From Candidatus Cloacimonadales bacterium (GTDB lineage Bacteria > Cloacimonadota > Cloacimonadia > Cloacimonadales > DAONDQ01): 64,000 nucleotides of DNA. Position 1 is the first letter of the stretch; every line of letters starts with the position of its first letter. Of this stretch, positions 24,589 through 63,448 are shown piece after piece. The translations under genes and the position numbers were made by a program. The notes under the pieces were generated by a model. That model was not told the DNA's origin and did no database searches. It saw nothing but the letters and a program-made list of their open reading frames with translations. The stretch covers positions 4,288,001-4,352,000 of the forward strand of contig OY759316.1 of NCBI GenBank assembly GCA_963662275.1, read 5' to 3'.

Positions 24589-24594
24589 GGAGAG

Positions 24595-27741: not shown

Positions 27742-27754
27742 GAAGGAAAAGAAA

Positions 27755-30073: not shown

Positions 30074-30089
30074 GTATAAAGATTTGGGT

Positions 30090-30121
30090 AGTCCCGTATT
30101 ATTTGTAAATACGGGACTTTT
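30090..30121 (+). terminator. Intrinsic terminator or stabilising hairpin upstream of pilB
   Basis: AGTCCCGTATT...AATACGGGACT followed by Ts. Confidence 0.6.
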
Positions 30122-30154
30122 CCCCAAAATTTAATTTAAAAAAGGATCTATTCT

Positions 30155-31849: not shown

Positions 31850-31885
31850 TCCGTTTCATTTCATAATAAAGTTAAAGGAAAGTAT

Positions 31886-45218: not shown

Positions 45219-46238
45219 ATGGATTATAAAAATTCAGGTGTCGATATTGAAGCTGGTGAAAAGGCAGTATCTCAAATAAAACCTCTTGTCCGATCTACGT
45301 TTAATAAAAATGTAATGACCGATATTGGTGGTTTTGGTGGATTATATGCCTTGGACCTGGTAAAATGGAAAGAGCCAGTTCTTGTTTCCAGCATGGATGG
45401 AGTCGGCACAAAGCTTATGATTGCACAGAAGGCTAGTATATATAATACAATAGGTCAAGACTTAGTGAATCATTGCGTCAATGACATTTTCGTACAGGGA
45501 GCAATTCCGCAGTACTTTCTTGATTATATTGGTGTCGGGAAACTGTCCACGGATGTTGTCTATCAAATAATTACAGGATTAAGCAAGGCATGTAAGGAAA
45601 ATGAAATATCCTTAATTGGTGGAGAGATGGCTGAAATGCCTTGTATATATGCTGAAAATGATTTTGATCTTGCTGGAACGATTGTTGGTTTAGTGGAGAA
45701 AAAGAATCTGATTGATGGTCAGAAGATACAACCAGGTGATATTATCCTGGGTTATCCATCAAATGGTCTTCATACAAATGGATATTCACTAGCGAGAGAT
45801 ATTATTTTTCAGAAATTGAATTTGGAAATAGACTCATATGTATCGGATTTATGTGAAACAGTAGGAGATATCTTGTTAAAAATACATCGCTCCTATTTTC
45901 CGTATTTACGTAATTATATTGTTCCGGAAATGAATCATGGTATGGCTCATATTACGGGTGGTGGTTTACCGGGGAATATTAAGCGGATTATCCCGGATAA
46001 TTTACAGGCAGTTATTGAGACAGCAACCTGGCAAATACCAGATGTGTTCCGCTATTTACAGGATGCCGGAAATATTGAGATCATGGAAATGTTCAGAGTT
46101 TTCAATATGGGGATTGGTTTTGTAGTTGTCATACCTCCCAGTGTTGAAACAGAATTTATGCAAAACACAGCAGCTATTAAAATTGGGATCATTCAGAAAT
46201 CTGTTGATCAACGGTCAAAAGTGATTTTACATAGATGA
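45219..46238 (+). CDS. purM: Phosphoribosylformylglycinamidine cyclo-ligase
   Basis: YKNSGVDIEAG, DGVGTK, GGEMAEMP, SNGLHTNGYSL, AHITGGG, FNMGIG. Confidence 0.96.
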   Translation: MDYKNSGVDIEAGEKAVSQIKPLVRSTFNKNVMTDIGGFGGLYALDLVKWKEPVLVSSMDGVGTKLMIAQKASIYNTIGQDLVNHCVNDIFVQGAIPQYFLDYIGVGKLSTDVVYQIITGLSKACKENEISLIGGEMAEMPCIYAENDFDLAGTIVGLVEKKNLIDGQKIQPGDIILGYPSNGLHTNGYSLARDIIFQKLNLEIDSYVSDLCETVGDILLKIHRSYFPYLRNYIVPEMNHGMAHITGGGLPGNIKRIIPDNLQAVIETATWQIPDVFRYLQDAGNIEIMEMFRVFNMGIGFVVVIPPSVETEFMQNTAAIKIGIIQKSVDQRSKVILHR

Positions 46239-47086
46239 TAAAATGGCGTATTTTAACTAACGGGAAGATGTCAGCATCCGAAAATATGGCTATTGATGAA
46301 GCCATAATGAATGGTTTGGAAAGTGGTATTTCTGAACCAACAATCCGTTTTTATGATTGGAATCCACCTACGGTATCCTTTGGCTTCCACCAGGATATCG
46401 AAAAAGAGGCGGATTTAGAGAGAATTAATGCCAAAGGGTTTGGATTGATTAGACGTCCAACAGGTGGTAGATTAGTTCTACATAAAAATGAAATCACATA
46501 TGCGGTGATTGCACCTCTCTCAGATCACCTTGCTGGAAGTATCATAGATGTCTATGCAGAAATTAGTCTTGCGCTGGCAGAAGGTCTGCGGATGATGGGA
46601 ATCAATGTGCAGTTTGAAAAGGGCTCATTAACATCACAGGAACAGCGTGAAGTTAGTAATCCCTGTTTTTCAAGCAGCTCAAAGTATGAGTTAACCTATC
46701 AGCGAAAAAAGATAGTAGGCAGTGCTCAATTACGAAGGAATAATGTATTTCTTCAACATGGATCGATCCTATTGGAAAAAAATCAGGAAGAAGTAGCTGA
46801 TTTATTACCCGGTTTAACGGATGAACAACGGAAAAAATTGGGTCAATATTTACAAAAAAAAACAATCTCAATTAATGAAATAAGAGATATGCCTATTGCC
46901 TTTTCAGAAGCTGTAACTTATCTGATAACAGGATTTAAGAGCATTTGGACAATGGACTCGTTTTATGAGGTTAATCATCTTAATAACTTAGAAATAAAAG
47001 AAGTTAACGAATTGATCACAAAAAAATACGGTCAAGAGCATTGGACTTATGCCTTTAGTGATAATGGGAATAAGCGACAAAAATAA
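46235..47086 (+). CDS. Lipoate-protein ligase A / octanoyltransferase (LipM-like) family
   Basis: NMAIDEA, RRPTGGR.VLH, KIVGSAQ.R, LQHGSI. Confidence 0.85.
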   Translation: MIKWRILTNGKMSASENMAIDEAIMNGLESGISEPTIRFYDWNPPTVSFGFHQDIEKEADLERINAKGFGLIRRPTGGRLVLHKNEITYAVIAPLSDHLAGSIIDVYAEISLALAEGLRMMGINVQFEKGSLTSQEQREVSNPCFSSSSKYELTYQRKKIVGSAQLRRNNVFLQHGSILLEKNQEEVADLLPGLTDEQRKKLGQYLQKKTISINEIRDMPIAFSEAVTYLITGFKSIWTMDSFYEVNHLNNLEIKEVNELITKKYGQEHWTYAFSDNGNKRQK

Positions 47087-47168
47087 TTTGACATAAAGAT
47101 ATATAGAATTTGTTTTGATAGAAAGGTAGAATTTAAGAAATGGTTAGGATATAAGGGAGGATTCAGTA

Positions 47169-50100
47169 ATGCGAAAGCTATTTTTTGCAGTGATGATCTT
47201 ATGTTTATTTTGCAGTATGGCTTTGTTTGCTGCAACTACCGGTAAATTAGCTGGTAGAGTGACAGACTCAATGGGCCGACCTCTAGCTTATGCGAATGTC
47301 ATATTGCAAGGGACACAAATTGGAGCACAAACAAAGGAAAATGGTTCATTTATCATTATTAATGTTCCACCAGGAACATATAATGTGATATTTACTGCCA
47401 TAGGCTATGATAAATACACTGTTAATGGTGTTCGTATTAACGTGGACGGAACAGCTACGGTAAATGCAAAGTTGCCCATCAAAGGTGTTGCCATTGAAGG
47501 CGTGACTGTAAATGCCGTGCAAGAAAAGATACAGAAGGGAAAGGTTGGTTCCGGTAGAAATATCCAGATGGAACAAAGTGGAGACGTAGCAGTGAAAAGT
47601 GTTGAAGGTTTGATTGCACTTGAAGCTGGTGTTACACAGAGCGGTGGTGAAATTCATGTTCGTGGTGGTCGCGGTAATGAAGTAGTTTATTCTATCGATG
47701 GCATGTCTGTATCTGATCCTGTAGACGGTGGTGCAGCATTATCTGTGGATACTGATGCAATACAAGACATGTCAATCATGACTGGCAGTTTTTCAGCAGA
47801 ATATGGAAATGCACAATCTGGAGTCGTAAATATCGTGACTAAAGACGGAGATGAATTTTATTCTGGTAAAATTGAATTTGATACAGATCATATAATTAGT
47901 GAAGGAAGGAATTCAGACCTGGTTAAATTTGCTTTGGGAGGACCGATTCTAGGTAATATAGCACCTGCTTTGAAGAAAAGTCTGACTTTCTATATAAATG
48001 GTGCTGCTGCTTGGGACGATGGTTATTATCGTGCTCTTTATAAGAATTCTCCCAATAATGATTTTATTTATCGTTATCCAGTGTATGAAAACACAGATTC
48101 TATGCATGTAATCACTTCACGGTTACTCGAGAATGAATATTCAGCTAACGATCCATATAAGAATCGGAAGAACTTCATGGGATTTGATCTTGGAAATCGA
48201 AATTTCGATTCCTATAATTTAAATGCGAAAACAAAGTACGTTATTGATGCACTTCAGAATGTAACTTTTGGTATTCGTGGCGACCGCGTAACGAATAATC
48301 CTTTCAGTCATACTTGGAAATATGCTCTTGATCATTATTGGTCTGATCGGACTGATCAACGTCAGTATATCGTAACATATGATAAATCCTTCAGCCCTAA
48401 ACAAATGAACTTGAAGGTTAAAGCGAGTTATTATGATAAAGTTCATGACCTTGGACCAAAAGGAGTGGACAGAAATAATTACATGAGTCTATATATCAAT
48501 CCAGATTCATTGGCGAATCCTGTTAATCTTGCAGCTTATATCCGAAGAATAATGAATAGTTCAGATTATGGCTATATGAGCATTGACCAGATTGCCGATG
48601 GAGTGATGGATGATGGTTATTTACCTGCCAGTTTCTGGACATATCGTACACAGGGCTTAGAGAATGCCCAAAACGTGGAAGGATTTACCGCACCCGGCAC
48701 GATTTTTGATACATTCATTAATGATAAAACCTCTACTTTTAATTTTCGTGCTGATTTAGAATATCAGTTAAATTCAATTCACTTGGCAAAGACGGGATTT
48801 GAAGTTTATAAACACCATATTGTTAAAGATCAGTTGAGTGGTTTCTTAAGCATATATGAAGATCGTCGCCAGAAATACCTTGATCAAATTATTGATATTA
48901 CAGATACCTTGCAATATGTTGATACTGACTCAACTGAAACAGGTGCATTTGTACCTCCCCAATTATTGGGTGTGATACAAAACGGTGAAAATAACTATAT
49001 ACCAATCTATAAACCCCAGGATTATCTTGCCGCTGCTTACGCTGCATCCGGAAAACATGATAGTTATATAGCGGATCCGTGGCAGGGGGCTTATTATATC
49101 CAAGACAAGATGGAATGGGAAGGAATGATTGTAAACTTAGGTGTCAGGACAGATTTTTGGTATCTGGGAACAAAGTACCAGGTCAAGAATGATGATGGCA
49201 CATATCGTTATGAAGATTTCAAACCTGAAGAGAGATTACAATTAATGGTTTCACCAAGATTGGGTGTTTCTCATCCGATTTCTGAAAGAGATGTATTACG
49301 TTTCGCATATAATTATCAGAATCAATTACCGCAAATGCAATACATTTTTACAAGTAAGACTCCAGCAGATGCTCAGGTTTCTGATGAGATAATAACCGTA
49401 GGTAATCCCAAATTACAGCCACAGATAACGGTTACCTATGAAGTTGGTCTTCAGCACCAGATATCTGAAGATTATGTAGCGGATATCACTGCTTACTATA
49501 AGAATATATACAACTACGTCAGCACGAAGAAAGTAAGCCAGCCTGGACAAGAGCAGGTTTACTGGTATGAATATACTTCGGAAGATTATGGTAGTGCTCG
49601 AGGATTAGATTTGTCGGTGGAAAAGTATATGTCGAATTTCTTTTCTGCTAATCTAGCTTATTCTTTATCATGGGCTCAAGGTAATAATTCTGATGTTGTC
49701 ATCCAGGATGTGATGACTTCTCTCCGTGAATTTCCCTTGGATTGGGATATTCGTCACAATCTCAATGCAAGCTTCTCATTTAGAATAGATCGAGGAGAAG
49801 AATTCTTTATTCCCTTTACTTCCCTTATTTTACCCATAGATGATTTCTCAGCTAACGTAACTTATAACGTTGCTTCCGGAAGTCCATATACACCGCAGAC
49901 TTTGTTAGGTAGTACAGCACTGGATACAAACAGTAAGCGGAAGGATTTCACTCAAAACACGAATCTGAAGTTGACGAAAACGATTGCCATGAATAAAAAG
50001 ATGTCTGTCAGATTATTTATCGATGTCCAGAATCTATTTAAGAATATGAATGTCCTGACAGTCTATCCTAAGACAGGTTCGCCTTATGTTGATGGCACAG

Positions 50101-50228
50101 ATATTAGCGATGCCAGCACAGGCTTTGTTTATCCTGAACGGCAAGTTGTGCACCAATTGTACATTCAGAACCCGAGTTATGTTGATAATGAACGCAACAT
50201 CACTCTAGGTGTTTCATATAATTTCTAA
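47169..50228 (+). CDS. TonB-dependent receptor with N-terminal carboxypeptidase-regulatory-like domain
   Basis: Signal peptide; TTGKLAGRVTD; plug HVRGGRGNE...IDG; FSAEYGNAQSGVVNIVTK; SPRLGVSHPIS; C-terminal LGVSYNF. Confidence 0.9.
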   Translation: MRKLFFAVMILCLFCSMALFAATTGKLAGRVTDSMGRPLAYANVILQGTQIGAQTKENGSFIIINVPPGTYNVIFTAIGYDKYTVNGVRINVDGTATVNAKLPIKGVAIEGVTVNAVQEKIQKGKVGSGRNIQMEQSGDVAVKSVEGLIALEAGVTQSGGEIHVRGGRGNEVVYSIDGMSVSDPVDGGAALSVDTDAIQDMSIMTGSFSAEYGNAQSGVVNIVTKDGDEFYSGKIEFDTDHIISEGRNSDLVKFALGGPILGNIAPALKKSLTFYINGAAAWDDGYYRALYKNSPNNDFIYRYPVYENTDSMHVITSRLLENEYSANDPYKNRKNFMGFDLGNRNFDSYNLNAKTKYVIDALQNVTFGIRGDRVTNNPFSHTWKYALDHYWSDRTDQRQYIVTYDKSFSPKQMNLKVKASYYDKVHDLGPKGVDRNNYMSLYINPDSLANPVNLAAYIRRIMNSSDYGYMSIDQIADGVMDDGYLPASFWTYRTQGLENAQNVEGFTAPGTIFDTFINDKTSTFNFRADLEYQLNSIHLAKTGFEVYKHHIVKDQLSGFLSIYEDRRQKYLDQIIDITDTLQYVDTDSTETGAFVPPQLLGVIQNGENNYIPIYKPQDYLAAAYAASGKHDSYIADPWQGAYYIQDKMEWEGMIVNLGVRTDFWYLGTKYQVKNDDGTYRYEDFKPEERLQLMVSPRLGVSHPISERDVLRFAYNYQNQLPQMQYIFTSKTPADAQVSDEIITVGNPKLQPQITVTYEVGLQHQISEDYVADITAYYKNIYNYVSTKKVSQPGQEQVYWYEYTSEDYGSARGLDLSVEKYMSNFFSANLAYSLSWAQGNNSDVVIQDVMTSLREFPLDWDIRHNLNASFSFRIDRGEEFFIPFTSLILPIDDFSANVTYNVASGSPYTPQTLLGSTALDTNSKRKDFTQNTNLKLTKTIAMNKKMSVRLFIDVQNLFKNMNVLTVYPKTGSPYVDGTDISDASTGFVYPERQVVHQLYIQNPSYVDNERNITLGVSYNF

Positions 50229-50249
50229 AAAAAGTAGGAGGAATAATAA

Positions 50250-50991
50250 AATGAGAAAGAAAATCACAATGACATTAATAATGGCCTGCAGTTTTATGAT
50301 GACGGCTATTGTATATGCTGCCGATACAGCGGCACCGCAGATCAGTGGTTTTGAAACATTAGCCCGTAAAGTTCTGGGAAGTGGTTTTGTGCAATTTTTC
50401 ATCGAGGGTGGATGGGCTATGTGGCCTATCCTGTTTATTGCTATTTATGGTATTGCTTACGCAATCTGGAAATTCATCTCCTTGAATTATGCAAAGATTA
50501 ATGTTACAAATTTTCTTGATACTTTCATACCTCTAATTGAAAAGAAGAATTTCAAAGAAGCTCTTGAAATGGCTAAGAAAACACGTGGTCCCATTGGGGC
50601 AACATTAGTTGCTGCTATGCTAAAAATTGATAAGGGACAAGCGGCCGTGGAGAAGGCGGTCGAAAATGCCGGTATAATAGAAATGTCTTTCCTCGAAAAA
50701 GGTTTTACTGAACTAGGTACCGCCATCACACTAGCTCCTATGTTAGGATTTCTAGGTACTGTTGCTGGTATGGTCCAGGCATTTGACGCTATTGCAAGAG
50801 CTGGATCTGTTGAACCAACGATCGTTGCATCAGGTATCAAGGTTGCATTGATCACCACAGTATCAGGCTTGGTTGTTGCCATTCCTATACAGATGCTGAG
50901 TAATATCTATATGGTTATGGTCGATGGTTTAGTTCTTGATCTTCAAAGAGTTACAGAGAAGGTTATGGAAACCCTCGTTGAACAGCAATAA
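50250..50991 (+). CDS. exbB: MotA/TolQ/ExbB proton channel
   Basis: APMLGFLGTVAGM..AF, GIKVALITTVSGL.VAIP. Likely start is the ATG near 50251 after AGGAGG; the ORF track starts at 50209. Confidence 0.88.
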
Positions 50992-51006
50992 CAGGGAGAA
51001 TATCAA

Positions 51007-51420
51007 ATGATTAAAAGAAAAAGGAAAGCTGGTCTTACAATACCAACAGCCTCTACTGGTGATATTGCTTTCCTGTTGATCATATTCTTCATGTCTACTA
51101 CTAAATTTGATACAAAGATCGGATTGGGTTTGACATTACCCCCCGCTGCTGTTGAAGGTGCGGAGAAGGTTAAAATAGCCGAAAAGAATATGACTAGAAT
51201 TTTCATTAGTAAAGATGGTCAGTTCTTGGTTAATGATCAGCTAATGGCAAGGCAAGATTTACCCAAACTTGAAGATATGATTCGGAAAAGTGTTTCTGAA
51301 AATCCAAAAATGGTGATCTCTTTGAAAACAGATCGCGAAGCAAGTTATGATGATATGATTATGGTTTTAGATCGTCTGCAGAAAGCAGGTGCTGCCAAAA
51401 TTGCATTATCGACGAATTAG
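51007..51420 (+). CDS. exbD: ExbD/TolR biopolymer transport protein
   Basis: STGDIAFLLIIFFM, KTDREASY. Confidence 0.88.
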   Translation: MIKRKRKAGLTIPTASTGDIAFLLIIFFMSTTKFDTKIGLGLTLPPAAVEGAEKVKIAEKNMTRIFISKDGQFLVNDQLMARQDLPKLEDMIRKSVSENPKMVISLKTDREASYDDMIMVLDRLQKAGAAKIALSTN

Positions 51421-51428
51421 GGGGAGAT

Positions 51429-51845
51429 ATGGCAAAATTCCTGAGAAAAAGAAAAAAATTCCTTATCCCCGATTGCTCAACATCAGACATTGCATTCCTG
51501 CTCTTACTTTTTTTCATGGTGACAACGGTGTTCGTGAAGGAAAAGAAATTTTGGGTAGCTATGGATCGTTTACCAAATGCGGAATCTATGACTAAAATAC
51601 CTCGTCAACATGCGGCTACTATATATGTAACAGCGAATGGAGATATTTTTATTGATGACTTTATGGTTCCCTTAGAACAAGTTGGAGTTGTTGAACAACA
51701 GAAGCTTGCCTTAGATTATAATCTGGTAACAAGCTTTCGTACAGATCGTAATTCTCGATATGGTGTCATGTCCGATATTCTTAAGCAAATGCAAGATGTC
51801 GGTGCATATAAAGTATCATTTGAAGCAAAAAGAAAGAGGTTATGA
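51429..51845 (+). CDS. exbD: ExbD/TolR biopolymer transport protein (second copy)
   Basis: STSDIAFLLLLFFMV, RTDRNSRYG. Confidence 0.85.
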   Translation: MAKFLRKRKKFLIPDCSTSDIAFLLLLFFMVTTVFVKEKKFWVAMDRLPNAESMTKIPRQHAATIYVTANGDIFIDDFMVPLEQVGVVEQQKLALDYNLVTSFRTDRNSRYGVMSDILKQMQDVGAYKVSFEAKRKRL

Positions 51846-52495
51846 CCATGGCTAAAATAAGGATGCATGATTGGAAAGATATAGCACTGTCATATCTGGA
51901 TAAATCTTTCAGTTTATCAATTTTGTTCTTTCTATTTGTTGTGATGGTTTCACCTAAACTAAAAATTCAACCCTATCAATATCAAAGCAAAGATGTTCAA
52001 TCCATAGATATTCCTGCAGAAATGCGAGAAAAGATCAAACCTCCTGAAAACATAACCAAACCGGTTTTCAATGTTGTTATTGATGAAAATCTTAGTGGAA
52101 GAGATGTTGGTGGAGAAATCAAAGAGATAGAATCAATAGATCCTACGACTCTTGATCTGAAATCAAAGGTGGAAGGAGTTCGCAAAATAGGTGAAACGCC
52201 TAAATTCGTGGCATACGAAGATCCACCTGTTGTCGTTAGCAAAGTCGTTCCTGAATATACACAGTTTGCGAGAAGAGCAAATATTCAAGGTACTGTATGG
52301 CTGGATGTGGAAATACTCGTTGATGGACGTGTTGGAGCTGTTGTAGTTAAGAAAACTCTTGATAGTAGCCCTGGTGGTTTAGATGAGGCTGCAATTGCAG
52401 CAGTCAAGAAGTGGAAATTCCAACCAGCAAAAAGTAGTGGTAGACCTGTTGCATGTTGGGCGGCAATCCCTGTAGTATTTTCGCTTAGCCAATAA
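51842..52495 (+). CDS. tonB: Energy transducer TonB
   Basis: N-terminal TM helix; PEY..FARRANIQGTV...DG.V...LDEAAIAAVKKWKFQPA. Confidence 0.9.
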   Translation: MTMAKIRMHDWKDIALSYLDKSFSLSILFFLFVVMVSPKLKIQPYQYQSKDVQSIDIPAEMREKIKPPENITKPVFNVVIDENLSGRDVGGEIKEIESIDPTTLDLKSKVEGVRKIGETPKFVAYEDPPVVVSKVVPEYTQFARRANIQGTVWLDVEILVDGRVGAVVVKKTLDSSPGGLDEAAIAAVKKWKFQPAKSSGRPVACWAAIPVVFSLSQ

Positions 52496-52613
52496 GACTT
52501 AAGTAAGTGAAATGGATTTTATCTTAATTATCTAGAAAAAAATAAATTAAGTAATTGTGTATTGACGAAGTTATCAATGCAACAGAAGGATATTATAAAG
52601 TGGAGGATTATAC

Positions 52614-55600
52614 ATGAGATTATCCTTGAAATTCATTTGTATTTTGATGGTATTTCTGATCGCCTGTACAATGTTAATGGCTAGGGCAGTCACACCTCAA
52701 GAGCAATCAAAAAAATTCGATTTATCTAAATGGCACAATGTCGGAAACATCTGGTTACGAGTTAGTAACTATGGATTTTTCGGAGCTGGTGATGCAACCG
52801 ATCCTTCCTGGCCATCTTTAGAATATCCGGGTGGATCAGGTATTGATTATCTGTATCAAGGTGCATTGTGGTTTGGCGCTAAAAAGGCTCGGAGAAGTTT
52901 AGATGGAAAAAAACTGTATTGGTTCGCTAACAAGCCAACTAATACTCCAGCTGATAGCGCAAGAACTATTACCGTTGATGATACCTTATGGAATCCGAAT
53001 AAAAAAGCTGTTTTAGATACTTTAGTAACTGTTGGTTTTGATGGAGATTTAGGATTAAATGAATTTTTACCTGCGTATAATCCTCTCGAAAGCAGCAATG
53101 GAAATATTGCTTCAGACTTCAATTTATATCAGAACTCGGATGATATTATGTCAGCCTCAACTCGTACTCAAAAAAGAGGGACTGATGATGACGGAGATAA
53201 TAGCATCGATGAAGATTTTGCAGGATATACATTTCCATTTCGACCTAGTAGCGAATTACCTTCTCAGTTTTCAGGATTTGGTGCTTTATTCCCACACGAA
53301 TTAACTCTAATACAAACTGATATTATCAAAAAAGGAAACAATCTGGATATTTGGTTTCCACTAGGATTCATGGATTTGGGAACTGCCATTGATGGGATTA
53401 ATCCCCGTTTTAATTTTACATCTCCAAATGATGATGACGGAGATGGACTTATTGATGAAGATGGTGCTCCAGTTTCAGAACAGGATTTTGTATCTTATTA
53501 CTACGATTATAGTCCTTTTGGAACGAGAGGAGATAGGGACTGGGGACGAGATAAGTCACAAACAACGCATGTGCCTTTAAATGTTATGGTGCGTCAGATG
53601 AGCTACCAGTGGAGTTATGATTATATTAAAAATCTTTGTTATGTGGAATTTGATATCACGAATATGAATGCTCAGGATACGCTTTATGACTGTGCTATGG
53701 GTATTTATATGGATAGTGATTGTGGCCCGCAGACTTGGACTGGTGACCAGAGATCACTTGACGATATTTCTGGTTACGTGAGTGGTTCTGGTTATGAATT
53801 TGCCTATACTAGGGATGACAATGGCGATGGTGGTTTAACTACAGGTATTATTGGTTCCAGAGTATGTTCACCTGATCCTTCAGACTTGCAGTTTGCATGT
53901 TGGTATTGGGAACGTGGAGACGGACCAGATGATTCAGATGCCTTAAACTTGAACCCTACTAAAAAAACTGCCAACGAAAAATACAGGCTTTTAACCAATG
54001 ATCCTAAAAATCCCGATATAAACAAATATACTTCCTTGAAACCGCCTGAAAACTCTTCTTCAACTGAATATCATCAACCATCACCTTCAGATACACGGTA
54101 TTTATTTGCCTTTTACGGTTCTCAACAAGGATACACAAATCCCAGTGATCTTACAGCATGGAATCTAAAACCAGGCAATACGATGAAAATAGTAATTGCG
54201 GTATTTCCCGGTAAAGATCTCGAAGATTTAAAAGCTTCAGCAAACTGGGCTGCAACTATTTATGGTAAAGCTCAAACCTTAAACACTGTGGTTTTACCTG
54301 ATACTTTTCCACACTATAATCCACCTGAACCGCCGACGATACCTAAAATGGGTGCAATTATTGTTGGTAGCGGAAACGGTATAGATGTATATTGGGATAA
54401 TCGGTCTGAGTATTCTTATGATTCGAAAACTGTGACTGATGCTGTTACAGGATGGCAGGATTCTCTTCATGTGGTAAATCATGGTTTTAACAGCGATCCA
54501 ACTTCTCTCAGTGTCCCACATGCTGATTATCCTCCTCAATTTGCAAATCTTCCAGGTATTGTTGTACCTAATAGCAACGCAACTGTAAATCCATTTACAT
54601 CCTATAGACTTAGGCATGATTTCCAAGGTTATACACTTTGGGGAAGATCTGGAAGTGGTTCGCAAGAAGATTGGGTTCTGCAGGAAAAATGGGATAAAAT
54701 TGATACTCCTCAAGATGTTCTAGATTATTCGATCAATCCAACAGATAGTGTAGATTATGGTGGATATCTTGGAAGTAATAAAGGTCTGCCTAATGAAATG
54801 GAAGCAACAAATGCAGATACACTATTTTATAAATATGATGAAAATTACTTTTTAAAGAAGATTGTTCCCCATGATAAATTCTATGGAATTCATCTCTATA
54901 ATCCGCATGTCGAATGGTCTGATTCTTTACAAACAGTTGCTAATGCCATGGCGAATAATTCCTCATATCCAACACAAGAAGAGAAAAATATGCAGGCTTT
55001 AATGTTTAAAAACCAAAATGTTCCTGCTTATATTTTCCTTGAATTGTATGATGATGCTTTAATACCGCTACTTAAGCATGGAGGACAGACGAGTTTACCT
55101 CTTGCTGAGTTTGAAAATGCTAATGATTACACAAAGCTCATAAAACTCAAACAATCTCGTTTAGCAAGGCGTTATTACACATCACATATTTATAATCCAC
55201 CGAAAGGTATTGAATATTATGTAGCAGTTACTGCTTATGATCGAGGTATTCCTAGTCAAAATCTGAATTACTTGGAAACAGGTCGTGATGCGAGTGCAAA
55301 TATGAAAACACTATTCCCTGGACCTTTAGCGAATGAAAGTATGAATAACATTTATGTCGTTCCAAATCCGTATTTAGGATTAAGTAAATTTGATGGACGA
55401 CGTGAAAATGATATGAAAGGTGATAGAAGTAAGAGAATATGGTTTGTGAATATTCCTGAAAGATGTCAAATTCGAATTTATACACTTGCCGGTGACTTAG
55501 TTGACGAAATATCGCATAATGGAGCATATAATGAAGATGTGATTACAATTAGTAAAGCTTCTGCATTAGGTATTGCTGCCAGTGGTATTCAGTCCTGGGA

Positions 55601-55718
55601 CTTATTAGCAAAACATGGTCAAGTTAGTCAAATTACTGCCAGTGGTATCTACCTGTTTTCTGTAGAGAACAAGAAGAATGGGGAAAGAAAAACCGGCAAA
55701 TTTGTATTACTTAAATAA
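52614..55718 (+). CDS. Large secreted protein with DxDGDGxxDED repeats and CTD-like C-terminus
   Basis: Signal peptide; SNYGFFG...EYP.GSG..YLYQGALWFG; DDDGDNSIDED and DDDGDGLIDED; IYVVPNPY...IRIYTLAGDLV...WDL...ASGIY...GKFVLLK. Confidence 0.8.
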   Translation: MRLSLKFICILMVFLIACTMLMARAVTPQEQSKKFDLSKWHNVGNIWLRVSNYGFFGAGDATDPSWPSLEYPGGSGIDYLYQGALWFGAKKARRSLDGKKLYWFANKPTNTPADSARTITVDDTLWNPNKKAVLDTLVTVGFDGDLGLNEFLPAYNPLESSNGNIASDFNLYQNSDDIMSASTRTQKRGTDDDGDNSIDEDFAGYTFPFRPSSELPSQFSGFGALFPHELTLIQTDIIKKGNNLDIWFPLGFMDLGTAIDGINPRFNFTSPNDDDGDGLIDEDGAPVSEQDFVSYYYDYSPFGTRGDRDWGRDKSQTTHVPLNVMVRQMSYQWSYDYIKNLCYVEFDITNMNAQDTLYDCAMGIYMDSDCGPQTWTGDQRSLDDISGYVSGSGYEFAYTRDDNGDGGLTTGIIGSRVCSPDPSDLQFACWYWERGDGPDDSDALNLNPTKKTANEKYRLLTNDPKNPDINKYTSLKPPENSSSTEYHQPSPSDTRYLFAFYGSQQGYTNPSDLTAWNLKPGNTMKIVIAVFPGKDLEDLKASANWAATIYGKAQTLNTVVLPDTFPHYNPPEPPTIPKMGAIIVGSGNGIDVYWDNRSEYSYDSKTVTDAVTGWQDSLHVVNHGFNSDPTSLSVPHADYPPQFANLPGIVVPNSNATVNPFTSYRLRHDFQGYTLWGRSGSGSQEDWVLQEKWDKIDTPQDVLDYSINPTDSVDYGGYLGSNKGLPNEMEATNADTLFYKYDENYFLKKIVPHDKFYGIHLYNPHVEWSDSLQTVANAMANNSSYPTQEEKNMQALMFKNQNVPAYIFLELYDDALIPLLKHGGQTSLPLAEFENANDYTKLIKLKQSRLARRYYTSHIYNPPKGIEYYVAVTAYDRGIPSQNLNYLETGRDASANMKTLFPGPLANESMNNIYVVPNPYLGLSKFDGRRENDMKGDRSKRIWFVNIPERCQIRIYTLAGDLVDEISHNGAYNEDVITISKASALGIAASGIQSWDLLAKHGQVSQITASGIYLFSVENKKNGERKTGKFVLLK

Positions 55719-55727
55719 GGAGGAACT

Positions 55728-56759
55728 GTGAAAAAGATCATCCTATTATTAACCCTGGTTGTTCTGACTGCAGCTCCTGCTTTTTTGAATGCTGGAATTT
55801 TTCCTAAAACAGGTACTGCATCATTACAGTTTTTAAAACTTGGTATTGATGCTCGTGCCACAGGTATGGGAGAAGCGTATACAGCAGTTACAAATGATAT
55901 TTCATCTGTTTACTGGAATCCTGCAGGTCTGGCTTTGATACCTCAACAACAGGCATTTTTTTCTCACACCAACTGGCCTGGTGAAATCATGCATGATTAT
56001 GCGGCTGTTTCTCGTTCGACAGGTGTTTCCGCTTATGCTTTTAGTGCTTCTGTTCTACATATGGCACCCATGGATGTGACAACTGCTGATGCTTTTGGAC
56101 CAACTGGAGAAAAATTCAATTACATGGATATGGCACTGGGTCTTACGTATTCCAGTGCTTTTACAGATAAATTCTCATTTGGTTTTACGGGTAAGTACTT
56201 AAGAGAATCTACTGCTGGTTATAGTATAGACAGTTATTCACTCGACTTGGGTTCTCTCTACAATACAAAGTGGAAAAATCTTACGATTGGAATGGCATTA
56301 CGAAATTTTGGACCTGATGTAAAGTATACAATTGATAATGATGAAGATAACCACATGGATGAAGATCCGGTTGATTTGTTGGATAATGATGGGGATGGAC
56401 TCATTGATGAGGATCCACCTGAATTAGGTGCAAAGATACCAATGGATTTTTCAATGGGTGCTTCCGTTGATTTATATCGCACAGATACTGAATATTGTAT
56501 AGCTTCTGCACAACTAGATAACTGTATTGACAGGCAGGAAACGTGGAATCTTGGAAGTGAATATAAATTTGGTTCATTATTTGCTCGTATAGGTTATCAG
56601 TTGAATTATGATACCTATGGTCCAAGTGCTGGGTTAGGGTGGGAATTAGCAACCCGTATTGCTGTTTTTAACATCGATTATGCTTATACGAATATGGGTA
56701 AGATGGCGGAAGATTTTATCGGGAGTGCACACCGTTTATCCATAAAAATGAAGTTCTAA
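55728..56759 (+). CDS. PorV/PorQ (UPF0164)-family outer-membrane beta-barrel with acidic Ca-binding-like insertion
   Basis: GTASLQFLKLGIDARATGMGEA, YWNPAGL, IDYAY...HRLSIKMKF; insertion DNDEDNHMDED...DNDGDGLIDED. Confidence 0.82.
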   Translation: MKKIILLLTLVVLTAAPAFLNAGIFPKTGTASLQFLKLGIDARATGMGEAYTAVTNDISSVYWNPAGLALIPQQQAFFSHTNWPGEIMHDYAAVSRSTGVSAYAFSASVLHMAPMDVTTADAFGPTGEKFNYMDMALGLTYSSAFTDKFSFGFTGKYLRESTAGYSIDSYSLDLGSLYNTKWKNLTIGMALRNFGPDVKYTIDNDEDNHMDEDPVDLLDNDGDGLIDEDPPELGAKIPMDFSMGASVDLYRTDTEYCIASAQLDNCIDRQETWNLGSEYKFGSLFARIGYQLNYDTYGPSAGLGWELATRIAVFNIDYAYTNMGKMAEDFIGSAHRLSIKMKF

Positions 56760-56825
56760 CAGAATATAAGCAAAATGTAATTGAAACAAGCGTTTCGATT
56801 ACGCTTATTTATATAAGGAGGAAAG

Positions 56826-59072
56826 ATGAAGCGTCTAATAATAATACTTTCATTACTTGTTTTATTGATCGGTTGCTTGTCAGCCCAAGAGATGAAAGCA
56901 TTGTCAAAATCTAACATACCGGTAAAGCTAGCACCCTCTCCCTTGAGATTACCGACTCGTGAGGCACCTGCATATGAATTTTCAACTCTACCTTTTTCAC
57001 TACGCTCATCGTATTGGGATTATATGATCGGTGGTTATACTACCCTTCCAGTACGTGTGCAATCTGCTGCTACTGGTGGCGGAATTTATTTGACTTATAT
57101 GGGTCAAACAGATCCAACTACCAATGCTGGGCTGAGACGTGTTTTTTACACATATATTGGAGCTGATGGTGTAGTTGGTTCTAATAATGAGCTTACAGAT
57201 GATACGATTAGAGAAGGTTACAGTTCTGTTGATATTGATCGTCTCAGTGGTAAACCTATTTTTGCCTGGCATACTAGTGCTAATCCCCCCACTGATACTC
57301 ATTATAATGTTGCTTTTGCCTGGGATGCATATCTGGAAGGGATTCCAGGTTTGATCAGTGAACCCATTAAAATTATTAATTATCCAGACACAATGATTGT
57401 CAACGATGTTTCTATAAATGATAATGAATTTATATGGCCCAATGTTCAAATTGGTCCATCTCCGCTTGCAGATTATCGTCGTGTTTATATTTCTACGACT
57501 AACGTCAAAGGTCATACCGTACTAGGTGATGATGGCGAATCGCTTCCTTCAGAAAATCAGAAGATCGCATATGCGGATTTTACACCTGCTATGATGGAAA
57601 ATGGTGACACATTGATTTGGCATTATACAACAATTCCGTTATTAGATATATGGAATAATACCGATACATCATTTCGTCGTCCTTACTATTCAAACCTGGT
57701 TGGAGAAGATGGAAAATATTACATCGTTGGGTGGCATGATTCAGCAGAAGAAAACGTAGATATCGCTATCCATGAACCTTATTTAGATGTTTGGATTAAT
57801 AGCAATTATGGTGAAGGTGAATGGACAAAGTATTCTATGAATCCAGATGTAGAAATTCCCAATCCAATTGATCCCACGGACACTCTTGGCTATTTTAGAG
57901 ATGATAATGGTACTCCATTTCCCTCTTTGAGATATGTAGTAAAAGAAGGTTGTCATATGAATGCATCTCTCGATAACAATGGATTACTCCATTTCCCATT
58001 AATTTCATTTTTAAAATCTGACAGTACACATTGGTATCCTACTACTTCTTATATGAAGGATGTTCAATTCAACACTAGATACAATACTTTCAAGGTGTGT
58101 GATGTATATCCGCAGTCTGTAAATCCGAATGATGGTAATCCAGCAATTCCTTGGGATCTTGATGGTCTTGGACCACAATTCGTACTTAGCTCAGCGGATT
58201 CTACAACCTACATTTTACAGTCAACTTCTGATATGCCATATGTATACTGGGATTCAGAAGCTGTTGATAATGGCATGGCGTTTAATTATAATTACTGTCA
58301 TTTATCAAAAATGAACGATAATGATCAAATGGTCATGGTATGGGCTGATTCTTATCGTGCTTATTTACGTAACACATATCCGACTGCTTATCCAGAACTT
58401 GCACCATTTCAGCAAGTACCGGAAACTTATATTTCCATCTATCCAACAACTTACGTTGATTCACTCGGCACTTCACATCCTGAATATGGTGCAGTGTGGA
58501 GTGAGCCGATTGTCTTAAATTCAGTTGAAACACCTCAACTCACTGTCGCGGGAGATCCGATGATTCCTGAGTGGGTATATCCTGGTGATTATGTTGAATA
58601 CCTGGGAACAGATGCTGATAATAATAGGATTGGCAGAGTTCACCTGATGTTTTACGATGATAATTCCTGGGGTGCTGCATCAATCGATCCTGCTGTTGGT
58701 CAACCCAATGGTGGTAAAGTTATGTATACGGCGATTGATATTAAATGGCCTCCATGTGATGCGGTTGGAGCGAATGATCCTGTTGTTCCACCTTCAACAA
58801 GAATGTTGAAGCAGAACTATCCAAATCCTTTCAATCCAACTACTTCGATTTCTTTCAGTCTGCCGAAATCAGGGAAAGCATCTCTGAAGATTTATAATAT
58901 CAAGGGTCAGCTTGTAAAGACTCTTGTCAACGGTCCGACTGCAGGTGGAGATCACACAGTGGTATGGAACGGCAAGAACGATAATGATAACAGTGTTAGT
59001 TCAGGTATCTATTTCTACTCTCTCAAGAGTGGTTCACATACTGAAACTAAGAAAATGATGATGGTTAAATAA
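56826..59072 (+). CDS. Secreted protein with C-terminal FlgD-Ig/T9SS-like domain
   Basis: Signal peptide; LKQNYPNPFNPTT...IYNIKGQLVKTL...WNG...SSGIYFY...KKMMMVK. Confidence 0.85.
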   Translation: MKRLIIILSLLVLLIGCLSAQEMKALSKSNIPVKLAPSPLRLPTREAPAYEFSTLPFSLRSSYWDYMIGGYTTLPVRVQSAATGGGIYLTYMGQTDPTTNAGLRRVFYTYIGADGVVGSNNELTDDTIREGYSSVDIDRLSGKPIFAWHTSANPPTDTHYNVAFAWDAYLEGIPGLISEPIKIINYPDTMIVNDVSINDNEFIWPNVQIGPSPLADYRRVYISTTNVKGHTVLGDDGESLPSENQKIAYADFTPAMMENGDTLIWHYTTIPLLDIWNNTDTSFRRPYYSNLVGEDGKYYIVGWHDSAEENVDIAIHEPYLDVWINSNYGEGEWTKYSMNPDVEIPNPIDPTDTLGYFRDDNGTPFPSLRYVVKEGCHMNASLDNNGLLHFPLISFLKSDSTHWYPTTSYMKDVQFNTRYNTFKVCDVYPQSVNPNDGNPAIPWDLDGLGPQFVLSSADSTTYILQSTSDMPYVYWDSEAVDNGMAFNYNYCHLSKMNDNDQMVMVWADSYRAYLRNTYPTAYPELAPFQQVPETYISIYPTTYVDSLGTSHPEYGAVWSEPIVLNSVETPQLTVAGDPMIPEWVYPGDYVEYLGTDADNNRIGRVHLMFYDDNSWGAASIDPAVGQPNGGKVMYTAIDIKWPPCDAVGANDPVVPPSTRMLKQNYPNPFNPTTSISFSLPKSGKASLKIYNIKGQLVKTLVNGPTAGGDHTVVWNGKNDNDNSVSSGIYFYSLKSGSHTETKKMMMVK

Positions 59073-59089
59073 AGCATACTTAACTAAAT

Positions 59090-59121
59090 AAAAAAAGGCG
59101 GCTGTAAGACAGCCGCCTTTT
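59090..59121. terminator. Intrinsic terminator
   Basis: AAAAGGCGGCTGT-AAG-ACAGCCGCCTTTT. Confidence 0.85.
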
Positions 59122-59193
59122 CATATATCTATGAATATTGACAAATATCTTTATTGTGTAAAATGGTATTAGTAGTTTAATAAGGAGTTGTGA

Positions 59194-60720
59194 ATGGATC
59201 GCATATACCTGAAAGGAGCAGATTTGACGATAGAACAGGTCTGGAACATTTCGTATCAAATGATAGAAGTTGGATTATCGGAAGAAGCTGTACAGAAAGT
59301 AATCAAATGTCGGGAATACGTCGATAAGATAATTCAGGAAGGTAGAATTGTCTATGGACTGACAACTGGTTTCGGTAAATTCAGCACGATAAACATACCT
59401 GCAGATAAAATTGATGAACTTCAGGAAAATCTTATTCTTAGCCATGCGACAGGAGTTGGTAACTATTTTTCAATTCCTGAAACCAGAGCAATACTCCTAC
59501 TTCGTATTAATGTACTTGCTAAAGGACATTCAGGAATTCGACTTCAAACTCTACAAACCCTTATTCAAATGCTTAATCAAGGTGTTCATCCTTGCATTCC
59601 GGAAAAAGGTTCAGTGGGTGCTAGTGGTGATTTGGCACCTCTTTCTCATCTTGCCCTAGTTTTATTGGGTATGGGAAAGGCTTATTATCAAGGTGAGCTT
59701 TTAAGTGGGGAAGAAGCGATGCGACGGGCAGGAATCATCCCTGTGAAACTAGTTGCAAAAGAGGGTCTGGCTTTAAATAATGGTACTCAAGTAATGACTG
59801 CAGTTGGAGCACTTGCTTTGCATAGAGCAGAAAACTTAGTGAAAGTTGCAGACATTTGTGCAATTATGAGCTTGGAAGCTTTACTGGGAACACCGGCAGC
59901 TTATGATCCTCTTATTCACCGACTAAGACCTCATCCGGGGCAATTGGCATCTGCAGATAATCTGTTTAGGTTAGTCCAAGACAGTAAGATACGTGAATCC
60001 CATCTGACATGCAGTAATGTCCAAGATCCCTACAGCCTTAGATGCACTCCCCAAGTTCATGGGGCGATAAGAGAAGCCTTGACATATGTCCGTCACGTGA
60101 TAACAACTGAAATCAATTCTGCTACAGATAATCCTCTCATATTTCCTGACGAGGACAAAGTGATATCGGGAGGCAACTTTCATGGAGAACCAGTAGCCAT
60201 TGCATTAGATACACTTGGAATCGCAACTGCTGAATTAGCCAATATTTCCGAAAGACGTTTAGAACAAATCTTCAATCCTGCCTTAAATCGAGGCTTGCAA
60301 CCATTTCTTGCTCCTAGACCAGGGATTGATTCTGGCTTTATGATTGCACAATTGACTGCTGCGTCTCTTGTTTCCGAAAATAAAGTATTGGCTCATCCTG
60401 CATCTGTGGATTCAATTCCGACTTCTGCAAACCAGGAAGATCATGTCAGTATGGGCACGATATCAGCGGTTAAAGCCCGGACAATCATTGATAATGTATC
60501 TTATGTCTTGGGAATTGAGTTAATGTCTGGGTGTCAGGCTCTTGATGAAAGAGGAATGCAAAGTTCTCCGGCTGTTGAAGCGGTTAAGATGGAAATCCGT
60601 TCTGCGATACCCCATTTGGATAGAGATAGAATTATATGTGATGATATTCAATATATGAAAGAATTAACCGATTCGCCTACCTTACCTGATCTGGTCTCAA
60701 AATTTGTTCCATTGAATTGA
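59194..60720 (+). CDS. hutH: Histidine ammonia-lyase
   Basis: VYGLTTGFG, GSVGASGDLAPL (MIO-forming ASG), KEGLALNNGT, QDPYSLRC, SGGNFHG, NQEDHVSM. Confidence 0.96.
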   Translation: MDRIYLKGADLTIEQVWNISYQMIEVGLSEEAVQKVIKCREYVDKIIQEGRIVYGLTTGFGKFSTINIPADKIDELQENLILSHATGVGNYFSIPETRAILLLRINVLAKGHSGIRLQTLQTLIQMLNQGVHPCIPEKGSVGASGDLAPLSHLALVLLGMGKAYYQGELLSGEEAMRRAGIIPVKLVAKEGLALNNGTQVMTAVGALALHRAENLVKVADICAIMSLEALLGTPAAYDPLIHRLRPHPGQLASADNLFRLVQDSKIRESHLTCSNVQDPYSLRCTPQVHGAIREALTYVRHVITTEINSATDNPLIFPDEDKVISGGNFHGEPVAIALDTLGIATAELANISERRLEQIFNPALNRGLQPFLAPRPGIDSGFMIAQLTAASLVSENKVLAHPASVDSIPTSANQEDHVSMGTISAVKARTIIDNVSYVLGIELMSGCQALDERGMQSSPAVEAVKMEIRSAIPHLDRDRIICDDIQYMKELTDSPTLPDLVSKFVPLN

Positions 60721-60739
60721 CCTTATCAAATAGAAAGGA

Positions 60740-63448
60740 TTGACTTATATGAGAATACGCCGGACTCTCTTATTCCTTGTTCTGCTTTTTTCCCTTTTTC
60801 TGAGCGGATGTGTTTATTATAATACACTATATAATGCTAAGAAACTCTACAAATCAGCACGATCGCGTCCTTTGATTAATGGGAAGCCAAATACACAGGC
60901 AATTGATGAATATACCAGGGCAATGAAGAAATGCGGTTATATCCTTACCGAATACAAAAACAGTCCGTATGCAGACCAGGCTTTGTTTTTATTAACCCAA
61001 AGCCTGTTTTATAAAGGTAATTCAAATCTGCAAGCCTATGAAAAATGCCAGGATTTTCTGAAGTTTTATCCAAAAGATGAACTAGTACCGGAAGTCATTC
61101 TATTTGAAGCAACAATTCTGCATGAGATGAAGAAAAATGATGAGGCTGTTTCTACACTTACCAGTTTTCTACAGGAGCCAATTTTTAAGAAATATTACCC
61201 GCGTGCTTATCTACAGCTCTCCATTAGCAGCATGGATGAAAAAGCTTATGCCCAAGCCCAATATTATTTGCAGAAAATTATTGATAATTATCCTCACTCA
61301 AAAGAGTATAAAGAAGCTTTCTTTCAATTGGGTTACGCTTTCCATATTGAAAATAAATTCGCAGATTCCAACCAGGTTTTCCAGAAATTACTAAAGTCCA
61401 GATTAGAAAAAATAATCAAACTAGATGCTCGATATTACATTGCCCTGAATGATTATTATCAAAAAAATTACAAGAAAGCTGATATTGAAATTAAACCTTT
61501 GTTAAAGGCAGAATCAAGAGCAGATAAAATCCCTTTAATCAAACTACTAAAAGCTAGAAATCTACTTGGATTGAACCAGTATACAGATGCTGTTAGTTTG
61601 TACGAATCGATTAATACCGATTATCCGAAAACCATACATTCGGCAGAAGCAAATTATTATTTAGGTGAATTTAATTTGAATTATCAGCATAATTATGAAA
61701 AAGCAATTACTTTCTATAATAATGTCAAGCTGGAATCTAATCTGTCTCCTTTTGTCGAAGATGCTTTTTCAAAGAGTGCTATTGCCAGTCAAATCATTCT
61801 ATATAACAAGAAGGATAGTAACCTGGCAATTAAGGAGATGGTAAATCAACAAATGAAACTTGCAGAATATTATCTGCACAGTATGAATCTCCCTGATTCT
61901 GCATTGTCTGTTTATCGCGGAGTAGTCAATCATCGCGGTATTCTAGAAGCCCAACTTGATTCATTGGATCAAAGAATTGCACACCTTGATTCTCTCGGGG
62001 TTCCGAAAGATACTTTGAAAGTTATCAAATTAGATTCATTAGCTATTTCTGGTGATTCACTTAAGACCTCACGAACTGATACCTTAAATGTTATTAATGA
62101 TTCACTACGTGTTTCCCAACCAGATTCCTTAAATGTTGGCAAAAAACTATGGAATGATGCTAAAACCGATTCTATCGGAATACAAAAAGATACACTCAGT
62201 GTTCACAAACGCGATTCTTTCGTTAATCCTGAAGAGACTAAGTACAAACCTATAAGAGATACTCTCAATGTACCTGACAAAACTATACCTGTACCCATAA
62301 CATATTACTTACAGAAGGATTCGACAAAAGCAATTGCTGATTCCGTTGCAACTGACGATTCAAGTAAAAACCAGATGCTTGGAAAACTAGTTCAGAAACA
62401 AGAGTCGATGCAACCCGATAGTATTGATTTCAAAATCAAGGATAATATGACATCAAGTTCAGATAGTACCGGACTTAAGATCATATCTCTTGCGGATTCT
62501 ACAAAATCTGATAGTACAGGTTTCCAAGACAGCTTACAAGTAACTAAGAATAAGCATATTAAAACTCCTGAAATGCAAAGTCTGTTAGCAAAACAAAACC
62601 AGCTTTCTGTTAATTTAATGGAATATGATAGTGATTATGTTCCCTTAGCGCTATATGACCAAATTTGGATCTATAAATATAGTATACCCGATTCTGTTAA
62701 AATGGAGCAAGTCTACCAGGAAATGCAGGACAAGTATCCGTTGAATCGGTATACACATGCTGCGACACTTATGCTTCAAGGAAAAAAGGTTGAAGTTACA
62801 ACCGATGAAGAAATCGCCATTGAAAAAGAATACACGGATGCTATGGATTTATATAGTTCATCTCCAGATTCTGCAAAAACAATCTTAAAAACTCTAACAT
62901 CAAATAAGAATTCGATATTTAATGATAAATCTAAGTACTCTCTCGGTTATATTTTCTGGTTTAATGAACATGATTCTGTAAATGCTAAACCATACTTTGA
63001 TGATCTTCTTAAAAAAGACGCGAATAGCGAATATAGTACTTATATAAACCAATTTTACAATGGCAGTAATTTTGTATTTATCGATGAACTTCCTGCGATT
63101 CGAGAGATGGAAGAGAGAGAAAAGCAAAAGAAAATAACAGAACAAGCTAATGAACTAAAGAAGCAGGAGTTAAATCGTCTTGTCGATAACCCTAAACCCA
63201 AGGGTGCTGTTCTTGAATACATTCTTCCACCCCTACCTGAAAAGCCGATTATCATTGAAGATACTACAAGTGTAAAGGACACAACCAGAGCAATCGAGGA
63301 AAAACCAAAACAGGAAGAGACAAAGAATATTCCGCAAATCAGTCAACCTATGAATACTGGAGTTAATCAACCTCAAATCAAAGAGAATGACAGACCATTC
63401 GATTTCATCAAGCCTATTCCCTCAGTAAAACCTAAGGATTCAGAATAG
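60740..63448 (+). CDS. TPR-repeat lipoprotein with central D-(S/T)-rich low-complexity tract
   Basis: Lipobox LSGC followed by VYYNTLYNA; many TPR units (..YP.S....A.F.LG). Start may be ATG 60749. Confidence 0.8.
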   Translation: MTYMRIRRTLLFLVLLFSLFLSGCVYYNTLYNAKKLYKSARSRPLINGKPNTQAIDEYTRAMKKCGYILTEYKNSPYADQALFLLTQSLFYKGNSNLQAYEKCQDFLKFYPKDELVPEVILFEATILHEMKKNDEAVSTLTSFLQEPIFKKYYPRAYLQLSISSMDEKAYAQAQYYLQKIIDNYPHSKEYKEAFFQLGYAFHIENKFADSNQVFQKLLKSRLEKIIKLDARYYIALNDYYQKNYKKADIEIKPLLKAESRADKIPLIKLLKARNLLGLNQYTDAVSLYESINTDYPKTIHSAEANYYLGEFNLNYQHNYEKAITFYNNVKLESNLSPFVEDAFSKSAIASQIILYNKKDSNLAIKEMVNQQMKLAEYYLHSMNLPDSALSVYRGVVNHRGILEAQLDSLDQRIAHLDSLGVPKDTLKVIKLDSLAISGDSLKTSRTDTLNVINDSLRVSQPDSLNVGKKLWNDAKTDSIGIQKDTLSVHKRDSFVNPEETKYKPIRDTLNVPDKTIPVPITYYLQKDSTKAIADSVATDDSSKNQMLGKLVQKQESMQPDSIDFKIKDNMTSSSDSTGLKIISLADSTKSDSTGFQDSLQVTKNKHIKTPEMQSLLAKQNQLSVNLMEYDSDYVPLALYDQIWIYKYSIPDSVKMEQVYQEMQDKYPLNRYTHAATLMLQGKKVEVTTDEEIAIEKEYTDAMDLYSSSPDSAKTILKTLTSNKNSIFNDKSKYSLGYIFWFNEHDSVNAKPYFDDLLKKDANSEYSTYINQFYNGSNFVFIDELPAIREMEEREKQKKITEQANELKKQELNRLVDNPKPKGAVLEYILPPLPEKPIIIEDTTSVKDTTRAIEEKPKQEETKNIPQISQPMNTGVNQPQIKENDRPFDFIKPIPSVKPKDSE

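Follow-up and report, generated by a model that had tools for sequence, protein, structure and literature searches.

A TonB-dependent transporter, a type IX secretion cargo and a PorV-family barrel as a predicted import module in Cloacimonadota

Known systems closest to the operon

Outer membrane importers and surface-anchoring systems have been described in which single parts resemble an operon that we analyzed in a Candidatus Cloacimonadales bacterium (assembly GCA_963662275.1, contig OY759316.1, positions 4,288,001 to 4,352,000 of the forward strand; these 64,000 nucleotides [nt] are the window, and positions are counted from its first letter). The operon encodes a TonB-dependent receptor (TBDR), an ExbB-ExbD-ExbD-TonB motor, a 1034-amino-acid (aa) secreted protein that we call P1034, and a barrel of the PorV family. 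Among importers, the relevant systems are SusC/SusD, RagA/RagB, and BtuB/BtuG, the last of which has been described in Bacteroides as a lipoprotein lid, BtuG, capping BtuB (bioRxiv 10.1101/2022.11.17.516869). Among type IX secretion system (T9SS) proteins, PorZ and PorU are reported to retain their C-terminal domains (CTDs) uncleaved (PMC11285876), PorQ-PorZ is a known subcomplex (PMC10947112), and cargo with a type B CTD has its carrier encoded directly downstream (PMC12618676; PMC11205867). Finally, Oar of Myxococcus xanthus, which exports PopC, is described as combining a CarboxypepD extension, a plug, and a TonB box with a TonB1-ExbB1-ExbD1-ExbD2 set dedicated to it (PMC6434023).

The operon lies on the + strand of a genome that forms a single contig and is 99.97% complete; the names of homologues likewise assign the host to Cloacimonadota. 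Its first gene encodes a TBDR of 1019 aa (47169..50228; Pfam CarboxypepD_reg, Plug, and TonB barrel) with a CarboxypepD-like N-terminal extension at residues 27-114, a TonB-box-like IEGVTVNA at 109-116, and a plug at 136-218, followed by the barrel. The motor genes encode ExbB (50209..50991, 260 aa from GTG; PF01618 [MotA_ExbB], E 2.9e-24), two ExbD proteins that carry their membrane aspartates, Asp19 and Asp20, respectively (51007..51420 and 51429..51845; PF02472), and a 217-aa TonB (51842..52495; PF03544 [TonB_C], E 8.4e-18). For ExbB, the ATG at 50251 is a likelier start than the GTG at 50209. P1034, the candidate surface cap (52614..55718), belongs to an unnamed family and is described here from predicted models and fold searches. 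The 343-aa barrel, its predicted dedicated carrier and anchor (55728..56759), is assigned to the PorV/PorQ family by NF033709 and by the PorV structure 6H3I_F. The last gene encodes a 748-aa type A CTD protein with an unclassified body (56826..59072; TIGR04183/PF18962). An initial annotation of this DNA had listed these eight + strand open reading frames (ORFs), the VVPNPY and terminal GKFVLLK of P1034, and the 9-nt gap to the barrel, all of which we recovered in place; Pfam and NCBIfam models likewise supported its naming of the TBDR, ExbB, both ExbD proteins, TonB, and the CTD of the 748-aa protein, which they place in type A. The eight genes are indeed co-oriented, but genes upstream of them share that orientation.

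We propose, with a probability of roughly 60%, that the TBDR, P1034, and the barrel form, together with the motor, a SusCD-like import module whose cap would be cargo of the T9SS that a PorV-family barrel of its own keeps in place. The grounds for this reading are the gene content and order, the conservation of the trio, the domain folds, the presence of SprA in the same genomes, and the absence of SusD.

Each of the described systems covers only part of this arrangement. As in SusC/SusD, RagA/RagB, and BtuB/BtuG, a transporter with an N-terminal extension, a plug, and a TonB box stands directly before a large surface partner, and hydrolases occur near some of the trio loci. Unlike in those systems, the partner is neither a SusD-family protein nor a lipoprotein but a supersandwich-FN3-CTD protein, the transporter matches no SusC model, and the module is predicted to need both the T9SS and a third gene, that of the PorV-family barrel. 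PorQ-PorZ and PorV-PorU share with it a PorV/PorQ-family barrel and a protein with the PorZ/PorU CTD fold; here, however, the pair is tied to a TBDR instead of to lipopolysaccharide attachment and includes a P1034 body unrelated to PorZ or PorU. A separate gene of presumably PorU-like type, with its own barrel, exists in the genome besides the P1034-barrel pair. Like type B cargo with PorP/SprF, for which surface anchoring has been described (PMC12618676), P1034 has its carrier gene directly downstream, but this barrel is of the PorV family, the CTD matches no type B model, and the cargo is no adhesin-type repeat protein. The resemblance to Oar lies in a transporter that has a CarboxypepD extension and comes with a TonB, an ExbB, and two ExbD proteins of its own; the Oar system as described involves no T9SS parts and its export was shown by experiment (PMC6434023), whereas here SprA is available. 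In predicted function the module would work like SusCD or BtuBG, yet it falls outside that group in having no SusD, no lipid anchor, and no SusC match, and its predicted anchoring is like that of PorQ-PorZ or of type B pairs although it is a member of neither.

Conservation and predicted architecture of the trio

To describe the trio outside Cloacimonadota, we used a P1034 profile search, which returned 3,323 cluster representatives at E ≤ 0.001 from a family without a Pfam model. The lineages named among the homologues are Calditrichota, Ignavibacteria, WOR-3, KSB1, Fidelibacterota/Marinimicrobia, Krumholzibacteria, Eisenbacteria, and Coatesbacteria. Metagenome loci were found with a degenerate CTD motif, which picks CTDs like that of P1034, so the counts describe that subset. 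Among the matches listed, 80 of 122 stretches had flanks, and 78 of these had an anchor ORF (6 Cloacimonadota-type, 72 others); the remaining 42 stretches are outside the counts. In the 72 non-Cloacimonadota loci, a barrel lay within 500 nt downstream of the CTD protein in 49 of 66 with room for one, and a TBDR preceded the CTD protein by no more than 500 nt in 33 of 46. Separation of the three genes had been named in the initial annotation as a result that would speak against its idea; our neighborhood analysis found both partners adjacent in 30 of the 40 loci with both flanks. ExbB was present in only 1 of the 72. The conserved unit is therefore the TBDR, the CTD protein, and the barrel, with inclusion of the motor being lineage specific, so that the full set of eight does not make up a single machine of universal occurrence.

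The three members also diverge together: across 31 trios their pairwise similarities correlate (rho 0.75 to 0.81, reached by 0 of 999 permutations), a raw correlation that includes shared ancestry. Scored on the phylum profiles, trio TBDRs of other lineages reach a median of 398 bits versus 95 for the best in-genome paralogue, and trio barrels reach 210 versus 116. We scanned 108 of the 116 ORFs neighboring metagenome trios for families and found glycoside hydrolases (GHs) in 8 loci, peptidases in 4, and many more CTD proteins, but no SusD-family protein (0/108) and no alternative lid candidate. Three loci with similar-sized trios have in common a neighbor matching PF10091, which we take to be GH144, hinting at substrate-specific subtypes. 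In three loci (L127, L148, and L182), a right-handed beta-helix protein separates the TBDR from the CTD protein.

Within Cloacimonadota, P1034 is matched in 111 of 121 genomes. From the full-length matches we sampled 40 loci so as to span families and have long flanks, and 37 of them keep the order TBDR-ExbB-ExbD-ExbD-TonB-P1034-barrel, which indicates that the grouping is more than chance. (A related-loci search of genome contigs gave 65 loci, all from Cloacimonadota, and these were left out of the counts.) Median identities among orthologues in the phylum range from 47 to 58%, with the TBDR at 48%, and the TonB box has the consensus I-E-G-[IV]-T-V-T-A over 38 rows. The 748-aa type of protein comes directly after the barrel in 29 of the 35 loci that could be scored and is an accessory, a frequent yet dispensable neighbor; its best atlas match (0.88) is to an unnamed protein. 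Ten genomes are without P1034. In three of these the TBDR is cut at a contig end, and one (G047; 99% complete, 80 contigs) has SprA and no trace of the operon, possibly through an assembly gap. The other six are complete genomes from genus f12 that also are without the TBDR and SprA, and we counted them as one loss event. Paralogues of 650 to 1400 aa (P0127-P0159; G040:C4, G101:C210, and others) join the P1034 supersandwich to an ordinary type A-like CTD, so that this domain is also used without the barrel-type tail.

P1034 itself matched no Pfam or NCBIfam family. Its predicted architecture consists of a beta-supersandwich at about residues 33-570, an FN3 domain with insertions at 571-903, and a PorZ/PorU-type CTD at about 905-1034. 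The model of P1034 has a predicted local distance difference test (pLDDT) score of 69 with a low-confidence CTD, and the CTD fold was read from a 622-aa relative, L121, with a model pLDDT of 90 and with alignments homologous to the P1034 family at a probability of 100. In the L121 model, the supersandwich is closest to the noncatalytic N-terminal domains of GH15, GH94, and GH116 (Z 19.9, root mean square deviation [rmsd] 2.9, 235 residues), enzymes whose catalytic barrel is not part of the P1034-type supersandwich fold. The FN3 domain of P1034 gave a fold match with a Z of about 10, and the L121 tail superimposes on the PorZ CTD (5M11; Z 12.7, rmsd 2.0, 90 residues), which is the C-terminal immunoglobulin-like CTD fold. 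The sole PDB sequence match, a weak one, is to the PorU CTD (E 0.64). Type A and type B CTD models have no match in P1034, and 1 of 18 relatives matches PF18962 weakly. By pattern matching, the P1034 signal of this window has a lipobox-like LIAC, but it is the single such copy among 41 orthologues of the phylum, and a similar pattern occurs in none of the partners from 30 other trios; judged by these sequence patterns, the family is nonlipoprotein. Fold searches listed no SusD fold, although absence from the list is no exclusion.

The initial annotation had called the neighboring barrel PorV-like. It exceeds the cutoff of the PorV/PorQ family model (NF033709, 181.6 bits, cutoff 90) but falls below those of the PorV and PorQ equivalogs (78.4 versus 250 bits and 85.8 versus 220 bits, respectively), making it a paralogue within the PorV family; another gene, at C1:2052980, gives the genome's top match to PorV_fam. 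The match to 6H3I_F has an E value of 2e-11, and only PorV-type models were matched, none of PorP/SprF. At least five other PorV-like genes in this genome (G000) immediately follow genes for large proteins whose tails are CTD-like (6828, 1662, 1045, 520, and 382 aa), so pairing with a dedicated carrier looks general in the genome. The barrel has two inserted DxDxD[GN]xxDED loops, at 203 and 219, and P1034 has two DxDxDG-type loops, at 191 and 273. Of 5576 genome ORFs, only P1034 and its barrel contain D[DN]DxD[GN]xxDED, and within the phylum the aspartate-loop motif is present in 38 of 39 barrels and in all 41 of their partners examined. We rejected the shared loop as a private docking code of general reach, since only 6 of 63 metagenome barrels carry the motif.

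Taken with these folds, the proposed module would operate as follows. Sec would take P1034 across the inner membrane and SprA across the outer one, whereupon the neighboring barrel would collect and keep the PorZ/PorU-type CTD of P1034, as PorQ does with PorZ. The barrel and the FN3 arm would then set the supersandwich over the TBDR, where it would bind substrate, and ExbB-ExbD-ExbD-TonB would pull the TonB box and open the plug. The CTD would stay uncleaved, with its binding to the barrel replacing a lipid anchor. The operon's motor is probably the main Ton system of Cloacimonadota cells, in a genome that has three further TBDRs. As to substrate, the candidates are glycans for some copies in other lineages and, as a guess, oligopeptides for the mostly single-copy form of the phylum. 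Complex prediction was run on fragments because the window's own pair exceeds 1000 residues; a TBDR barrel (217-863) and L121 residues 19-371, each with an alignment, scored 0.00, which is evidence neither way.

No SusD-family protein was detected in this locus or genome (PF07980, 0 of 5 complete genomes; Bacteroides thetaiotaomicron control positive), in keeping with the initial annotation, which saw no SusD-like lipoprotein among the eight genes, and NCBIfam matches of the TBDR at E ≤ 0.01 include no SusC/RagA model. The same genome offers a parallel: a gene close to ATP-binding cassette genes (L243:3678-4961, - strand; G000:C1:4095675-4096961) that immediately follows a BtuB-like TBDR encodes a propeller of the YncE/DUF5074 type, which carries a type A CTD and lacks a lipobox. 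This propeller protein occurs in 107 of 121 phylum genomes and in 0 of 6 from f12, where SprA, the trio, and the propeller are all missing (one event), and a related BtuB-like receptor adjoins its gene in 11 of 25 short loci. Its PDB matches include 8BLW, 8P97, and 8BMX, which are named as YncE or surface-layer proteins and which we take to be BtuG structures. Apparently, a family of lipoprotein lids has been turned into T9SS cargo in Cloacimonadota, which makes a barrel-held cap plausible as a design. The earlier suggestion that a PorV-held CTD protein serves as a SusD equivalent thus gains context from a trio kept across phyla, its codiverging members, the PorZ-like CTD fold, the absence of SusD, and this CTD-bearing BtuG-like lid, while the contact itself stays predicted.

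If the import reading is right, many little-studied phyla related to Bacteroidota have a third way of capping TonB transporters, in which dedicated barrels bear T9SS cargo as the cap, and searches for uptake loci that are keyed on susD would miss them. It would also provide a role for the 3,323-representative family and for surplus PorV paralogues. A literature search found no description of the trio within its coverage, which excluded supplements and most subscription journals, and the accessible portion of the Caldithrix genome paper contains no passage on one (PMC5317091).

Evidence against the import reading and its rivals

Several observations weigh against an import module. No TBDR lies within 500 nt upstream in 13 of 46 metagenome loci, and the adjacent trio is missing in 10 of 40. 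The genomes behind the three exceptions among the 40 phylum loci each have two full-length copies; none of these three loci has the TBDR and one has the barrel, so P1034 can be encoded apart from the TBDR and, in two cases, from the barrel as well. A median identity of 55% and a mostly single-copy gene make P1034 more housekeeping-like than typical uptake loci, and this locus has no GH. To these points can be added the shared ancestry within the codivergence signal, a weaker fold match of the supersandwich to catalytic GH174 domains (Z 14.0), and a barrel tree in which trio barrels are not resolved as one clade (4 changes), although it is compatible with one origin.

Some of these observations would be expected if the barrel held P1034 on the surface as a separate, coexpressed enzyme or binding protein, an accessory in the manner of SusE or SusG and not a lid. 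The GH174-type match, the copies without a TBDR, and the PorV-like genes that follow large CTD-tailed proteins with no TBDR beside them all fit such a role. We nevertheless consider it unlikely, given that the TBDR adjoins the partner in most metagenome loci and codiverges with it, that the top fold matches are to noncatalytic domains, and that the loci have no other candidate for a lid.

A second rival concerns the motor. The phylum combines SprA, PorV-family barrels, and more than 200 CTD proteins, yet has no recognizable GldK, GldL, GldM, or GldN. SprA is present in 56 of 61 phylum genomes and 239 ORFs of this genome end in a type A-like CTD, but GldL and GldK exceeded their cutoffs in 0 of 61 genomes and GldM and GldN in 0 of 5; these searches had no positive control, so absence of the Gld proteins is not proven. 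In Flavobacterium johnsoniae, release of the carrier-cargo complex from SprA is described as an energy-requiring step (PMC10994853). The operon's ExbB-ExbD-ExbD-TonB might then also power extraction of carrier and cargo from SprA in place of GldLM, giving a Ton-powered and possibly ancestral T9SS without GldKLMN, in which the motor would act through a complex of TBDR, CTD protein, and PorV-like barrel or through a SprE-like TPR protein whose gene lies 1.7 kb downstream of the operon. Only two ExbB-family genes, one being the operon's, were found in 6 of 14 genomes, and operon and SprA were lost together in f12, both in favor of this rival. Against it stand the near absence of ExbB from trio loci outside the phylum, an ordinary client TBDR next door to the motor with three more in the genome, other ExbB-type motors in the genome, and G047, with SprA but perhaps only through an assembly gap no operon. 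We regard a secretory role of the motor as distinctly improbable, but the gap that it addresses, a phylum with SprA and CTD proteins and no recognizable GldLM motor, is testable.

One of the other motors is a second ExbB-ExbD-ExbD cluster (L240:4949-15411, - strand; G000:C1:3309949-3320411), without a TBDR and with a GWxTD gene nearby, which also encodes a 493-aa protein of presumably TonB/GltG-like type and two more proteins, one of 1286 aa and a TPR protein of 673 aa. We rejected this cluster as a universal T9SS motor: with the query used, its TonB-like protein turned up in only 46 of 61 genomes. A further ExbB-family gene at G000:C1:2039140-2043701 is followed by two ExbD-sized genes and by genes for unclassified proteins of 319 and 643 aa.

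The initial annotation had joined the idea of a Ton motor in place of PorLM to that of a TBDR-like barrel as the exporter, and the search for porLM and sprA that it suggested divided the two: the GldL and GldK result, uncontrolled as it is, leaves some room for the motor, whereas the presence of SprA speaks against the pore. An exporting role of the TBDR barrel for the CTD protein or for other cargo, comparable to that of Oar for PopC, is very improbable in our view, despite the Oar-like domain layout and dedicated motor and a weak PF25183 match in TBDR orthologues. The barrel of a plugged transporter is poorly suited to a folded, roughly 115-kDa CTD protein. The TBDR has both a plug and a TonB box, and SprA is present wherever the module is, making export through the TBDR unnecessary; moreover, recognition between CTD and PorV is described as occurring inside SprA (PMC10994853). 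Equally remote is a housekeeping or signaling unit of the envelope without nutrient import, for which the mostly single-copy, near-universal, highly identical gene placed among housekeeping genes and an architectural parallel, and only that, to the surface canopy of the Bacteroidota β-barrel assembly machinery, where BamG, which is of the FadL family, sits next to a larger barrel and serves as anchor for surface subunits with bound calcium (PMC12611786), are outweighed by the divergent copies (several in a locus or genome) and the hydrolase neighbors seen elsewhere and by the absence of the unit from the six complete f12 genomes.

Features flanking the operon

Downstream of the 748-aa gene, where a strong terminator had been annotated, there is a strong GC-rich hairpin (59094..59120; -22.5 kcal/mol, z -7.7, matched by 0 of 200 shuffles by folding energy). 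The terminator scan assigns it to the - strand, where the long T run lies, and the sense strand has four U only. It is likely a terminator, possibly for both directions. Rfam gave no match within window positions 46000-61000, and a promoter scan stayed at chance level (64 versus 68).

On one flank of the operon lies a PorQ-like barrel gene (39457-40410), and on the other a gene for a 902-aa TPR protein with a weak PorW/SprE match (60740-63448; E 1.7e-7). In two genomes of f13, sprA is about 10 kb from the operon. Farther off, positions 19021-33139 hold what we take, from sequence features (pilin-type N termini and PilT-, PilB-, PilC-, PilM-, and secretin-like proteins), to be a type II secretion or type IV pilus-like cluster. 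A 480-aa ORF at 35520-36962 is presumably transposase-like, and a copy with the same ends is found at G000:C1:2293397.

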